From a virus (lineage: Duplodnaviria > Heunggongvirae > Uroviricota > Caudoviricetes), in the IMG/VR virus record IMGVR_UViG_2718218135_000001, positions 32,001 to 96,000 of that record: a stretch of DNA of 64,000 nucleotides. One strand, written 5' to 3'. Positions 2,545 through 61,911 of this stretch are shown piece after piece; position 1 is the first letter of the stretch; each line of letters opens with the position of its first letter. The notes beneath the pieces were generated by a model that was given only the letters and a program-made list of their open reading frames with translations, was not told the DNA's origin and did not search any database. The position numbers and the translations under genes are program-made.

Positions 2545-2560
2545 TGTAAGTACTTACTTA
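2545..2560. promoter_or_regulatory. TAAGTA-N-TACTTA palindromic box (second motif family)
   Basis: tgtaagtacttactta immediately after the terminator and 40 bp before gene 2600. Confidence 0.5.
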
Positions 2561-2599
2561 TGATAATAAAATTAAAAATTAAACACTAAGGAGAGTGAA

Positions 2600-2995
2600 A
2601 TGACCGTTAAACGCGAAAATCTGACCCTGGATATGTATTATGCATCAGAGACGGAAAATGGAGACAAAGTTGCAAAAATTACAATTGTGCTACGCGATAA
2701 TACCTCCGGCGAAGAAGTTCACACCAGTACCTTAACTCGCACCGGCGAGGCCACAAAGGGGAAATATTCGGTGCGTTACCAAAGCATCAGTAATGCTTCT
2801 GACCCTTTACTGATAAAACTGGAAACTCATTTCCGTGGCGCGGATCAGACGTTGTTTGAAAATTTGATGAAAAAGGTCGATACGGTTTATACATCGAGTT
2901 TAAATACCAATAGTACCTGGATGGGACAACACGGTCTGCGAATAATCTCCGGCGAAAAGATCGACACCATTGTCCCTGAAAGCGTATTCGCTTAA
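2600..2995 (+). CDS. hypothetical protein (131 aa)
   Basis: strong RBS AAGGAGAG; terminator downstream. Confidence 0.55.
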   Translation: MTVKRENLTLDMYYASETENGDKVAKITIVLRDNTSGEEVHTSTLTRTGEATKGKYSVRYQSISNASDPLLIKLETHFRGADQTLFENLMKKVDTVYTSSLNTNSTWMGQHGLRIISGEKIDTIVPESVFA

Positions 2996-3007
2996 TCCTC
3001 TTTGAAT

Positions 3008-3032
3008 GGCGCGTAAACCGCGCCATTTTCTT
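3008..3032 (+). terminator. rho-independent terminator
   Basis: ggcgcg-taaac-cgcgcc hairpin followed by ATTTTCTT. Confidence 0.6.
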
Positions 3033-3041
3033 ATGCCCGAT

Positions 3042-3054
3042 AACAATTTGTTTT
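3042..3054. promoter_or_regulatory. AAACAA-N2-TTGTTT operator-like palindrome (half-degenerate)
   Basis: aacaatttgtttt upstream of gene 3113. Confidence 0.4.
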
Positions 3055-3112
3055 CTGCCTTATCTGATTTGTGAAAATGATTTCACTGAAGCAACTTAAT
3101 AAGGAAACCATC

Positions 3113-3487
3113 ATGGGACTTGATATCTATATCGAGACGCAGCCTAAAAACGATCTGAATAACGAGGCATCCAGAAAGCAGGTTGCTTACTTCCGTAAGT
3201 TCAATGCGCTCGTTGGGTGGATGGAGCGCAACGTAGGTGAAGTCGAAAATTGTGAGCTTTTAGAATTAACGATGAATGACATTTGTTTTCTGAAGGCTCA
3301 TTTGATGCACATAAACGAAAGTAATTGCGAAGAGTACTTGCCTACCCAGGAAGGTTTTTTCTTCGGCAGTCAGGAGTACGATGAAGGTTACTGGCATGAC
3401 GTGGATAAGCTGAAAAAACTTGTGGAAGACCTGATCAGGAACCACGACTTTCACAATAACAGACTGACGTTCCGTGCCTGGTGGTAA
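3113..3487 (+). CDS. hypothetical protein (124 aa)
   Basis: in-frame ATG with AAGGA RBS; the track ORF begins at GTG 3071. Confidence 0.5.
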   Translation: MGLDIYIETQPKNDLNNEASRKQVAYFRKFNALVGWMERNVGEVENCELLELTMNDICFLKAHLMHINESNCEEYLPTQEGFFFGSQEYDEGYWHDVDKLKKLVEDLIRNHDFHNNRLTFRAWW

Positions 3488-3489
3488 AT

Positions 3490-3633
3490 ATGGGCGATTT
3501 CAAGAAACGCCTGAAGGAAAGAGCCGAGATGGTCAGAAATCAAAACGCATCTTCTGTCATCAGATACGCAAGGCAGTTTAGTCGCAACAACAAATCAGTT
3601 GAGGAAAAGATCCTTAGCGCAATCGGGCGATAA
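3490..3633 (+). CDS. possible small basic protein (47 aa)
   Basis: ATG overlaps the upstream stop (TAAATATG); below the ORF-track length cutoff; hand-translated. Confidence 0.25.
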   Translation: MGDFKKRLKERAEMVRNQNASSVIRYARQFSRNNKSVEEKILSAIGR

Positions 3634-3638
3634 TTATT

Positions 3639-3662
3639 AAGGCCACCAGCAGTGGTGGCCTT
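3639..3662. terminator. 10-bp stem hairpin (terminator-like)
   Basis: aaggccacca-gcag-tggtggcctt perfect stem; no T tract. Confidence 0.35.
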
Positions 3663-3803
3663 AAATGACCATCCTGTTTCCCGCAGGCTAAAAACACCAA
3701 CCTCTTACCTCCAGGCAACCGACAAACCCACCTGTTCCCGTCCGGCTACCGCAACTTTCCACTTTGACGCCTTATTCGTACAACGATAATTAACACCAAC
3801 AAG

Positions 3804-59309: not shown

Positions 59310-59313
59310 ACAT

Positions 59314-59388
59314 AGCGCTGAACGGTTTGGATTCGCCACCACCGTCCGAACGAAAGACTCCGCAAATGTCGCCAGACCGTTCAGCGCT
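59314..59388. repeat. 13-bp perfect inverted repeat with 49-bp spacer just after the tRNA
   Basis: agcgctgaacggt ... accgttcagcgct. Confidence 0.75.
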
Positions 59389-59462
59389 GTGATAGACACG
59401 GCAGACGTTTTTTAACCATTGCTTCTAAGCATCGTAGCAACACTTTTTTCAGCGCAAAATCC

Positions 59463-59485
59463 AAAGGGGCTTCGGCCCCTTTTTG
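59463..59485 (+). terminator. rho-independent terminator
   Basis: ggggc-ttcg-gcccc followed by TTTTT. Confidence 0.65.
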
Positions 59486-59563
59486 CTATCAAGTCGCATA
59501 TGCAACCAACTTTTTTTAGCTTATAGTTAAGTTCAGTAGTAGAATGCTACGCTTCGTCGAGAA

Positions 59564-60079
59564 ATGACGATTATGGAGTCTATCGTGAAATTTAAAATCC
59601 AGCATTTGCAGGCAGCAGTGGCACTGGTTCTTGCCAGTATCCAGCCGCAACCCAAAGCGGTTGCGTGTCAGCCTACGATTGTAGAACGGGTTTATGAGAT
59701 GGGCGCTAGAGTCAACAAAACCGACATCAGTGATCTTACAGCTGCTCTCAATGAATTGGCTAAAGAACTGCGTTCAAGCCGCGCTGAACTTGCTCGTTAT
59801 GCTGACACTGACTTCTTTGCTGCTATCAAAGTAGCGGAAGAAATTAAGAATCAAACTATTCATGTAGCCGGTATCGCAGAATCTTTTGTTTTGATGTTAC
59901 CTGAAAAAGACGTCATCATGTCTTACGACAAAAACACTGTTGAGTTTGCGTTTTTTAAAGCTATTAAAATGGTCAGTATTGCGACCAAAAACTATCTCAA
60001 TCTGATTGATCAGATTACACACACTTCTGTAGTGCGTGACTCTGGTGTCAACCTTTTAGCCATGAACCATTCTAGCTGA
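59564..60079 (+). CDS. hypothetical protein (171 aa)
   Basis: ORF from track. Confidence 0.45.
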   Translation: MTIMESIVKFKIQHLQAAVALVLASIQPQPKAVACQPTIVERVYEMGARVNKTDISDLTAALNELAKELRSSRAELARYADTDFFAAIKVAEEIKNQTIHVAGIAESFVLMLPEKDVIMSYDKNTVEFAFFKAIKMVSIATKNYLNLIDQITHTSVVRDSGVNLLAMNHSS

Positions 60080-60247
60080 ACTTTAGCGATCGTCATCTTC
60101 TTCATCATTCTTTTTCTTCTAACAAATCATTCTCATCAATCTGGCTCAGATGGCATTCCAAAGTTGGCGTTATTAGGCGCTTTTTACTATTTAGCGTTTA
60201 AGATGGTTTGTCTACATAATTTATTCAGAATTTACGTAAGCTATATA

Positions 60248-60280
60248 AATGATTCCATACTTGTAAGGTATGGAATCATT
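60248..60280. repeat. lox/FRT-like site: 13-bp inverted arms around a 7-bp spacer
   Basis: aatgattccatac-ttgtaag-gtatggaatcatt, ~100 bp upstream of the recombinase gene; arm motif also at 58037 and 59057. Confidence 0.6.
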
Positions 60281-60378
60281 TTCAAAAACAGTCTATTTTA
60301 CTGTTGATCATACAAAACTTAGGCCTAACATACTGTTTATAAATACAGTAAAAACAGGCTTCACTCAGTGAGTGGACT

Positions 60379-61482
60379 ATGAAAAACACTTTTGATAAAG
60401 CACGCGCAGCAGAAAACACCTCTAGAGAAGCCATCGAGTATCTCGAACGCGCTTCCGGTTTGTCAGCAGTGTCGACCACCAATTTCGACGGTGACATGTC
60501 GTTTTCTTCCGCATTCATGTTATTCACTCGCTTATCTTTGCTGATAACGAGACGTCGACCTGAAATAGCTGTTCATTGTATTTTGATACATGTAATGCCG
60601 CATATCTGTGAAGTAAAAGTAAGTGACATTAGTAGGGTTTTAGTCAACCAGCTGGTGAACCCATTAATACTTGAGGGCAAGATCGTCCAGGGCAGACGTG
60701 TGTTCTCGCTGATGAAGCAGTTTCTCAGTTGGTGTGCATTTCAGGGCTTAATTGATACATCCCCATTGAACGATATGTCGCTTAACAGAGTAGCCGGTGG
60801 CGCGAAGCCCACGCCGCGCGAGCGCAAACTGACCGACGCAGAGGTCTGGGTCTTTTGGAATGTATGGGACTACTTCAACGTATGTGAGGGTACAAAGTGG
60901 GCGGCCAGATTATGCCTTGTAGCGGCCAGACGACCAGATGAAGTGCTCCGAGCTAAAAGATCAGAATTCAACCTCGAATATAATTTATGGAATCAAGGAA
61001 CGAGGAATAAATCGGCTCGCCAGCACTCGTTACCATTAAGCCCGCTAATGCGCAAATGTGTTGAGGAGCTGATCAAATACGGAAAAGGCAGCCAGTGGCT
61101 TGTTCCTTCAAACAAGAAACAGGGTGAGGATGTGCCAATGTCTAAGGTGGCCATATCACAGGCGTTGAGAAGGATTTTAGAACGTCCAGAGTTGATGGAG
61201 CTTGAGCCATTTACTCCCCGAGATTTGCGTCGTACTGCGCGTAGTTACTTCCCCGCGTTAGGCATAAGTCAGGAGGTATCCCGCAAAATTATGAACCACA
61301 GTCTTGAGGGGATAGATCGAGTATACGATCGACACGATTATATAGACGAGATGCGAGACGCCTTAAACAGTTTTTCGGCGTACATCGCATCAATCGTAGA
61401 GAAACAGGATTTAGAGGAGATAGATCATAAGTTCAAGGGAGATCGACTCGCTACTGAGCTAATCCGTGTAAATTTCTCATAG
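60379..61482 (+). CDS. tyrosine site-specific recombinase
   Basis: catalytic region with conserved Arg, PRDLRRT box and C-terminal YDRHDY tyrosine; true start may be internal. Confidence 0.8.
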   Translation: MKNTFDKARAAENTSREAIEYLERASGLSAVSTTNFDGDMSFSSAFMLFTRLSLLITRRRPEIAVHCILIHVMPHICEVKVSDISRVLVNQLVNPLILEGKIVQGRRVFSLMKQFLSWCAFQGLIDTSPLNDMSLNRVAGGAKPTPRERKLTDAEVWVFWNVWDYFNVCEGTKWAARLCLVAARRPDEVLRAKRSEFNLEYNLWNQGTRNKSARQHSLPLSPLMRKCVEELIKYGKGSQWLVPSNKKQGEDVPMSKVAISQALRRILERPELMELEPFTPRDLRRTARSYFPALGISQEVSRKIMNHSLEGIDRVYDRHDYIDEMRDALNSFSAYIASIVEKQDLEEIDHKFKGDRLATELIRVNFS

Positions 61483-61866
61483 CGACTTGATTGCCTCAAC
61501 AACCCGCTCCGACGCACCACGTTGGTCACCGAAACGTCGACGGAAGGCTTCCAGAACTAGTTTTTCATCTTTAGTCAGAGGGGCTGTGCCTTCGTCGCGA
61601 AAAAACTCTAACAGCTCTGGATGACGCTCTTCCAGCACCATTAGCATCAATCGGACCGAATCGGCATCCAATGCTTTAGCCAACGCTCTGACCTTGTCGA
61701 TCGGAAGCGGGATTTTGCCGCTCTTGATAAGTGAAAGATTGTTAGGATTTTTATAGCCTGCTTCTTTCGCGATGGTCGCCTGGCTTTTCGGAGAAATCGC
61801 GATTAAAGCGTCAATGTAAGCAGCGTAGCGACCTACTTTAGCTTCTGTTATTTCGTTGGTAGCCAT
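61477..61866 (-). CDS. HTH (XRE-like) transcriptional regulator
   Basis: 129 aa; convergent with recombinase and overlapping its 3' end by 6 nt. Confidence 0.55.
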   Translation of the reverse strand: MATNEITEAKVGRYAAYIDALIAISPKSQATIAKEAGYKNPNNLSLIKSGKIPLPIDKVRALAKALDADSVRLMLMVLEERHPELLEFFRDEGTAPLTKDEKLVLEAFRRRFGDQRGASERVVEAIKSL

Positions 61867-61897
61867 AATTATCAACCTGCGTGTTTTGATTTTATAT

Positions 61898-61911
61898 GGT
61901 AAGTGCTTACT
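61898..61911. promoter_or_regulatory. TAAGTA-type palindromic box
   Basis: ggtaagtgcttact in the promoter region of the HTH regulator. Confidence 0.4.

Follow-up and report, generated by a model that had tools for sequence, protein, structure and literature searches.

Dispersed 18-bp palindromes in an SSU5/pHCM2-type phage-plasmid as candidate operators of the prophage repressor

Regulatory sites scattered over a whole genome are known from several phages and plasmids. The repressor gp71 of the Cluster A mycobacteriophage L5 acts at 20-30 operator or stoperator sites genome-wide, mostly in short intergenic gaps and in both early and structural operons, of which few are true operators in promoters and the others are not promoter-associated (PMC6550527). 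In P1, a plasmid prophage, operators of the master repressor C1 are scattered over ~90-100 kb and many operons (those listed in the P1 record include Oref, Omat, Ossb, Oc4, OrepL and Olpa), whereas the late structural genes are gated not directly by C1 but by Lpa. Dispersed palindromic sites can also tie silencing or late-gene expression to a ParB-family protein, as with the 12 dispersed OB operators of KorB on plasmid RK2 and the four dispersed SopB sites near phage genes of N15. The Lpa late promoters of P1 carry an AAGT.ACTT inverted repeat, lack a -35 element and stand in copies before morphogenetic and lysis operons, and the small regulator gene lies directly upstream of the terminase genes (PMC10695390). 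The subject of the present study is a family of palindromes, here called boxes, in a stretch of 64,000 nucleotides (the window; positions 32,001 to 96,000 of IMG/VR record IMGVR_UViG_2718218135_000001). The boxes are real, conserved and regulatory, and on balance they probably represent dispersed operators of the plasmid-prophage's own repressor, which would silence lytic units by promoter occlusion or roadblock.

The window belongs to an SSU5/pHCM2-type phage-plasmid of E. coli, with a genome size of ~105 kb. It is 98.8% identical to E. coli plasmid CP058032 over positions 1-25000 and 95% identical to Salmonella phage SSU5 over positions 14000-22000; the terminase large subunit gene (TerL) lies at position 14371 of the window and at 778 of SSU5, and the gene order is that of the SSU5 annotation. 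The family includes Y. pestis pMT1, S. Typhi pHCM2 and plasmids of Klebsiella and Acinetobacter (AB_1-type), and PLSDB holds 800-1000 related plasmids from Klebsiella, Escherichia, Enterobacter, Yersinia and Salmonella, those of Acinetobacter being more distant. The scattered-operator design is already known from P1 and L5, but the box is undescribed for this family in the literature searched: the motif string was found in no paper, no paper described operators or promoters of SSU5-type elements, and none was found on lysogeny control in SSU5/pHCM2/pMT1/AB_1 phage-plasmids.

The box family, its symmetry and its conservation

Alignment of the sites on their centres defines an 18-bp palindromic unit, TAAGTAAGT-ACTTAC(C/T)TA (here and below the hyphen between half-sites marks the centre), which extends to 18-20 bp as (A)TAAGTAAGT-ACTTAC(C/T)TA(T), is bordered by symmetric A/T-rich flanks and holds ~27 bits of information over 24 positions. 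An earlier note on this DNA had listed 14 near-palindromic boxes of 14-18 bp. The motif is present at every one of these places and is indeed palindromic, but the starts given there are offset by 0-11 nt from the aligned 18-mers, and the unit is 18 bp with its symmetric flanks rather than a 14-mer. The core 14-mer GGTAAGTACTTACC, with up to three mismatches, has 13 matches as against 1.38 +/- 1.14 in dinucleotide shuffles, and none of 100 shuffles reached 13, which bears out the claim that the copy number exceeds chance; the commonest 10-mer on the plus strand is TAAGTAAGTA. A position matrix recovers the 14 listed sites and one more at 63349-63366, with weak matches at 61933-61950 and ~43877, and yields no minus-strand sites in the window beyond those also found on the plus strand. 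The total comes to 15-16 copies for the 64-kb window and 26-30 for the complete SSU5 genome.

The boxes of the window, other than the two at the repressor promoter, are as follows.

2543-2560 (centre 2551): ATTGTAAGT-ACTTACTTA, 40 nt upstream of the open reading frame (ORF) at 2600-2995; preceded by a terminator-like hairpin (2511-2537) and overlapping the promoter-like TTGTAA-17-TAAAAT (2544-2572)
10092-10109 (centre 10100): TAAGTAAGT-ACTTACACA, in the 64-bp gap between a DEAD-box helicase gene (minus strand) and the first ParB_N gene (plus strand); kept in SSU5 and Klebsiella, and in variant form in Acinetobacter
15625-15642 (centre 15633): perfect copy, TAGGTAAGT-ACTTACCTA, overlapping the TerL stop codon; the portal ATG follows 18 nt after its right end, and only the Shine-Dalgarno sequence lies between
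17139-17156 (centre 17147): inside the 3' end of the portal ORF, filling the 17-nt spacer of a sigma-70-like promoter, TTGAAA (17132-17137)-17-TATGAT (17155-17160), which is the best of its kind in the region and conserved in four lineages
19066-19083 (centre 19074): 10 nt after the major capsid stop codon and followed by a terminator-like hairpin (19092-19112)
22167-22184 (centre 22175): before the major tail/Ig-domain gene, overlapping TTGAAT-18-TATACT (22153-22182), conserved in four lineages
28676-28693 (centre 28684): in the gpM-gpL gap, overlapping TGGATA-17-TATCAT (28672-28700), conserved in four lineages, and followed by a hairpin (28704-28726)
35486-35503 (centre 35494): before the tail fibre gene and followed by a GC-rich hairpin (~35509-35530)
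39248-39265 (centre 39256): 52 nt before the holin gene
43994-44011 (centre 44002): 15 nt ahead of ORF 44026-44751, with which the helicase/primase unit opens; close upstream is a promoter-like site (43952-43980), relative to which the box would span ~+7 to +24
54878-54895 (centre 54886): before ORF 54938-55750
55803-55820 (centre 55811): left half good, right half degenerate; ahead of ORF 55832-56308 and, after it, the DNA ligase gene
58485-58502 (centre 58493): TAGATAAGT-ATTTACTTA, where ORF 58186-58491 ends, and upstream of the tRNA-Asn region
63349-63366: TAGATAAGG-ACTTACCTA, inside a cobT-like ORF; identical in SSU5

The placement of these sites is far from random, with 12-13 of 15 centres falling in non-coding DNA, which makes up 12-15% of the window (binomial P ~1e-9). 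The mostly intergenic position asserted by the earlier note thus holds, as do its perfect 18-mer over the TerL stop codon and its copy within the portal ORF; the latter and the copy in the cobT-like gene are the two intragenic boxes, and both are kept in SSU5. A weaker related palindrome, TAATAAGTA-ACTTATTAA, is located at 43869-43892 in the same 282-bp gap as the box at 43994-44011, ~120 nt upstream of it, and may be an auxiliary operator.

In relatives the boxes recur at orthologous positions. The gaps between helicase and ParB_N genes and between TerL and portal genes, the portal 3' end, the sites after the capsid gene and before the tail gene, and the gpM/gpL gap are boxed in SSU5, in Klebsiella phage pJN2-26 and in a K. 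pneumoniae plasmid that is only 74% identical there. An Acinetobacter baumannii AB_1-type plasmid carries in the same gaps a symmetric variant box, ATTAGTAAGC-GCTTACTAAT (in summary form TTAGTAAGC-GCTTACTAA), and when the TerL/portal and gpM/gpL spacers are aligned, the box core stands out as an invariant island between flanks that have fully diverged from those of Acinetobacter. The box is almost certainly a regulator binding site placed at gene boundaries.

Whether the site acts as a nucleic-acid structure or is bound by a protein can be judged from the way in which its two halves vary. In the former case the box would be an RNA hairpin, serving processing, stability or anti-termination, or a DNA cruciform; the perfect copy could form a 7-bp stem with a GUAC loop, and several boxes adjoin terminator-like hairpins. 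Nevertheless, only two of 59 distinct enteric boxes are perfect palindromes, and among the 59 there are 120 one-sided changes as against five compensated ones, where 5.6 +/- 2.1 would be expected if the halves were independent. RNA folding gave zero energy for three of six boxes, and the best value, that of the perfect box, was -5.5 kcal/mol. The RNA hairpin was rejected on the missing compensation and the weak or absent folding, and with it the processing or anti-termination signal proposed in the earlier note; a structural role of any kind is regarded as highly improbable. The half-sites drift independently, as in a site for a dimeric protein, and the symmetry of the site, its equal flanks and the lack of compensatory covariation together argue for a protein dimer site rather than a structure.

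The same symmetry separates the boxes from the L5 sites, which they resemble in number (20-30 sites spread genome-wide) and in their preference for short intergenic gaps. In L5 a monomer binds asymmetric sites of 13-14 bp whose orientation follows that of transcription, whereas the boxes are palindromes of 18-20 bp without orientation, in which half-site mismatches are evenly distributed (28 and 32) and the flanks are equal (16/26 on each side, as detailed below). In addition, the L5 repressor is unrelated to the protein proposed below, and the boxes belong to a plasmid prophage of a Gram-negative host. The operators of P1 C1, which share with the boxes a plasmid prophage and dispersal over many operons, are 17-bp and asymmetric, and their protein is likewise unrelated; moreover, the boxes also precede head, tail and lysis genes.

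The repressor gene and the sign of regulation

Two boxes bracket the promoter of a putative repressor gene that adjoins the integrase gene, and the features of this region are listed here.

61477-61866, minus strand: XRE/HTH_3-type repressor gene, encoding 129 amino acids (aa); homologue of Cyrano CYRAN_45 (66% identity)
61913-61940, minus strand: repressor promoter, with -35 TTTACA (61940-61935), a 16-nt spacer and -10 TAATAT (61918-61913)
61896-61913 (centre 61904): box O1, ATGGTAAGT-GCTTACTGA, lower-consensus, at ~-7 to +11 of the repressor-gene promoter
61933-61950: box O2, degenerate, half overlapping the -35 TTTACA of the repressor promoter; 37 bp from O1

CYRAN_45 was listed as the putative master repressor in the LF82 study, in which Cyrano was induced 39-fold by ciprofloxacin (PMC9928086). 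The 129-aa protein is classed from its sequence as an XRE-type helix-turn-helix (HTH) protein: it matches phrog_8 ('transcriptional regulator', 4.9e-11), its profile matches PDB entry 2kpj (3.5e-4) and RefSeq names its homologues XRE family, while the Pfam HTH_3 and HTH_31 matches fall below the cut-off (E = 0.02-0.03). A scan of IMG/VR with the repressor profile yielded 79 loci with 48 distinct upstream sequences and repressors 60-99% identical; these were SSU5-type loci only, with no unrelated elements among them. Both promoter hexamers are invariant in the 48 distinct sequences, as is the block CTTTACAA...TGTAATATC(A/G)GTAAG(C/T)ACTTACCA (48/48), and the sequence further upstream cannot be aligned. 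The same arrangement is found in Klebsiella and in a second E. coli lineage, and in Acinetobacter in half-site form with TATAAT. That O1 and O2 bracket an invariant repressor promoter is counted in favour of an operator. So is the joint distribution of repressor and box: repressor homologues occur in 1002 plasmids and the structural module in 967, with the same distribution over taxa, and the enteric lineages with a shared box have a conserved recognition helix, whereas in Acinetobacter both the helix (NNLSLIKSGK to NMVSFIVRGK) and the box differ.

The genes that follow the boxes are also informative. In SSU5 the boxes precede head, tail, fibre and holin (lysis) genes, but also the helicase/primase unit, the ligase unit and the SSB, nrdA, thyA, DNA methylase and RNase H genes, among others. 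In Cyrano the lytic units have boxes and the lysogeny-expressed units named in the LF82 table do not (PMC9928086); no box was found in front of ParA, toxin-antitoxin or the other lysogeny-expressed units examined. The presence of boxes before early-type as well as late genes, and not before these lysogeny-expressed units, again counts for the operator. Restriction of the box to late (morphogenesis and lysis) operons was rejected, since early-type genes and the repressor gene are preceded as well. Accordingly, the earlier description of the boxes as markers of structural and late gene boundaries is right as to gene boundaries and incomplete as to the genes, which include those of replication, nucleotide metabolism and the repressor, and in the proposed late-gene regulator site the regulator binding site is almost certain and the late specificity is not upheld.

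Further evidence is provided by the relation of the boxes to promoters. Sigma-70-like promoters are depleted in window positions 1-40000 (9 versus 20.3 +/- 4.3 and 11 versus 19.5 +/- 4.2 in shuffled sequence), yet several of the few remaining plus-strand matches overlap boxes, and in SSU5 a sigma-70-like match within 30 nt accompanies 10/26 boxes in the direction of the gene and 3/26 in antisense (Fisher p = 0.05). Depletion combined with overlap in the gene direction is taken to favour the operator. Relative to the box centre, the start of the -10 element is +8 in the portal-internal promoter, +2 for the tail gene and +11 for gpL; other values are -3, -11, -13, +16 and +20. This variable register, together with a 17-nt spacer that is already optimal, fits occlusion by a repressor and not an activator of fixed geometry. 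Many copies, intergenic enrichment and overlap with core promoter elements, including those of the repressor's own promoter, are thus found together, as in other sets of dispersed operators. The site family, its symmetry, conservation and positions, and its overlap with promoter-like elements and the repressor promoter are established.

Several of these observations bear on a rather unlikely alternative, in which the boxes would be activator-dependent middle or late promoters at which a dimeric phage activator, bound near -20, recruits RNA polymerase in the absence of a -35. The late promoters of P1 in its annotated record, AAGT(G/T)ACTT-N4-TAnnnT, have the AAGT.ACTT core in common with the box, and, as in P1, most boxes lack a -35 and copies stand before morphogenetic and lysis operons: no -35 at fixed spacing was found at any box except in the repressor promoter region, and ~60% of the boxes are followed by a TAnnnT that begins at their last TA. 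Moreover, an 88-aa winged-helix protein (13264-13530), conserved as far as Acinetobacter, is encoded just upstream of terS, the position of the lpa gene relative to the terminase genes of P1, and could be the activator. The geometry argues otherwise. The P1 Lpa box is 9 bp and lies on one side at a fixed 4 nt from an invariant TAnnnT, whereas the sites here are 18-bp palindromes with symmetric flanks, to which promoter-like elements stand in variable register. A T at hexamer position 6 of the flank is as frequent in antisense as in sense (16/26 SSU5 boxes on each side), so that both flanks are equally -10-like and the TAnnnT is part of a symmetric site rather than a directional -10.

Leader lengths were also considered. 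The start codon is 10-28 nt from the box centre at 15633, 44002, 55811 and 10100, and a transcript directed by the flanking TAnnnT, starting at centre +20, would begin within or after the Shine-Dalgarno sequence of the portal and 44026 genes. Were the -10 inside the box, with a start at centre +16, the leader would still measure only 5-11 nt, and the argument from leader length against an activator is suggestive, not decisive. The boxes at the portal gene, ORF 44026, ORF 55832 and the ParB gene most likely lie within polycistronic spacers. The box plus TAnnnT as a directional promoter was dropped on two grounds, the equally -10-like mirror side and the expected start in or after the Shine-Dalgarno sequence. 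In addition, there are boxes ahead of early-type replication genes and one over the start site of the repressor promoter, which the Lpa promoters do not parallel, and no Lpa homologue was found: tblastn with Lpa gave E > 3 over the window and SSU5 1-50,000 (the rest of SSU5 and the element outside the window were not searched), Pfam PF25716 (Lpa) had no match in the 20 candidate ORFs scanned, and hhalign of the 88-aa family with Lpa gave a probability of 0.5%. The 88-aa protein resembles Lrs14/MarR-type winged-helix proteins, and its homologues are only unannotated SSU5-type proteins. On the whole, the evidence points to repression, as by an operator, over late activation.

The box-free gap between the 88-aa gene and terS contains an inverted repeat (13549-13618) with 24-nt arms that are 96% complementary and 22 nt apart; its centre, CTAAGTGATTAAT, resembles the P1 Lpa box AAGTGACTT, and it could be a packaging-related or regulatory site.

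Other candidate binders and the case against the repressor

The identity of the binder is addressed by the gene content of the relatives. The decayed 29-kb plasmid pPAU1 of Photorhabdus, an SSU5-type remnant, has rep, XRE, integrase and tail genes, and it carries box-like palindromes with an altered centre at 2034-2051 and 11973-11990, TAAGTAAT-TG-GTTACTTA and TAAGTAATTACTTACTTA. It has retained the XRE gene with a box-like palindrome in the region upstream of it, as well as the integrase, and lacks the ParB_N genes, terS and the gene for the 88-aa winged-helix protein. This combination is counted for the repressor as binder, and the plasmid, as a decayed relative, lends modest support to the repressor-operator reading. 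In the phage SSU5 record (NC_018843, 100 kb examined) the repressor and integrase are absent and the boxes are kept, and this too is counted in favour of operators.

The loss in pPAU1 is relevant to a further candidate, the two ParB_N proteins encoded at 10110-11476 together with an ABC-type ATPase, or another plasmid or phage protein, for which the boxes would be KorB- or N15 SopB-like sites; the dispersed palindromes would then be centromeres or clamp-loading sites that silence or modulate neighbouring genes. One box lies directly upstream of the ParB_N-ParB_N-ABC operon, an arrangement conserved as far as Acinetobacter, and the palindrome is fully conserved including its centre, like parS and OB sites. 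On the other hand, Pfam found in both proteins a ParB_N domain only and in neither a ParB/KorB HTH domain, PHROGs groups the two proteins with ParB-like nucleases and methyltransferase-linked domains, and a separate ParA/ParG-type partition module is present at 41899-42923. The ~30 sites over the genome are unlike a centromere and more numerous than those of KorB and SopB, and the remnant plasmid has boxes and an XRE gene without ParB_N genes. Binding by such proteins is accordingly considered improbable.

The operon itself (10110-13254) encodes the two ParB_N-only proteins, the ABC-type ATPase, a small ORF and a 299-aa protein (phrog_886), and lies ahead of the terminase genes. Its synteny extends from E. 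coli to Acinetobacter (15529-18968 and 13389-17372 in comparison sequences L006 and L007), and the operon may relate to packaging or DNA modification.

For the favoured repressor, the following course of events is envisaged. A dimeric DNA-binding protein, most probably the XRE-type immunity repressor (61477-61866, minus strand), would occupy the boxes and, in the plasmid-prophage state, would be present on ~30 of them dispersed across the ~105-kb genome. Where boxes lie on the -35, spacer, -10 or start site of the weak-to-moderate sigma-70 promoters that head small lytic units, binding of RNA polymerase would be blocked, and in very short intercistronic gaps the boxes would act as roadblocks to read-through. 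Occupation of O1 on the start site and O2 on the -35 of the repressor promoter would result in negative autoregulation. Upon induction, as by ciprofloxacin in Cyrano, all lytic units would be freed at once. Both the identity of the binder and repression as the sign of regulation are inferred here from sequence.

A number of points weigh against this interpretation. The link between the XRE-type protein and the box rests on position and co-occurrence, and such co-occurrence is common to every core gene of the family. A recognisable promoter is lacking at ~60% of the boxes, for which a roadblock role is assumed, and the promoter-like matches that exist are weak (9-10/12), with an orientation bias of borderline significance. 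Strong conservation of the centre, as seen in the box, is less usual among operators of XRE/Cro-type proteins, and a Cro-like or other protein could occupy the same sites. The boxes of pPAU1 could persist by inertia, this plasmid being in decay. Finally, the GC-rich hairpins directly after the boxes at 19066, 28676 and 35486 are outside the operator model, and the order of stop codon, box and hairpin is explained by none of the models.

The boxes concerned are those behind the capsid gene, between gpM and gpL and ahead of the fibre gene, each with its terminator-like hairpin 5-20 nt further downstream. The hairpin at the capsid gene is kept in enteric relatives, and a hairpin also follows the Acinetobacter box before the tail-tube gene (hairpin positions ~25100 in comparison sequence L005 and ~28350 in L007).

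Neighbouring genes and implications for the family

Two regions of the window without direct bearing on the boxes deserve mention. The first, at ~47500-54800, has no counterpart at the corresponding place in SSU5 or Cyrano and looks like cargo that entered between the primase gene and the lytic unit after it. By reading of the translations only, it encodes a Doc-like toxin (47558-47935), a fimbrial usher, chaperone and subunit (49362-53150, minus strand) and an IS3-type transposase (53291-54769). The second is an ORF at 6190-6714 (minus strand), located in a minus-strand cluster that adjoins the DEAD-box helicase gene, with a full-length match to Pfam Flag1_repress (FljA family, 'repressor of phase-1 flagellin'; E = 6e-69), through which the phage-plasmid may be able to repress host flagellin.

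The comparison of SSU5 with the window also touches on the origin of this phage. At ~42600-42760 of SSU5, corresponding to window 59500-62400, the tRNA-Asn is followed directly by the cobT-like gene, with no integrase, XRE repressor or O1/O2 promoter region, all of which are present in nearly every plasmid member. SSU5 thus resembles a derivative of the family that arose by repressor deletion, for which operators of the missing repressor would account.

In its most far-reaching form, which is thought unlikely, the lytic programme would be 'flat', with one XRE repressor gating ~30 promoters or roadblocks of early, late and lysis genes and no late activator, or the boxes would serve ParB_N/ABC-ATPase loading with KorB-like distant silencing. 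A flat programme, if true, would be a palindromic, Gram-negative counterpart of the mycobacteriophage stoperators. Phage-plasmids of the SSU5/pHCM2/pMT1/AB_1 group are very common in clinical Enterobacteriaceae and Acinetobacter, with ~1000 matching PLSDB records. For this group the operator consensus offers a simple sequence signature for annotating transcription units and, taken together with the candidate repressor and its promoter, a handle on silencing, DNA-damage induction and immunity groups.

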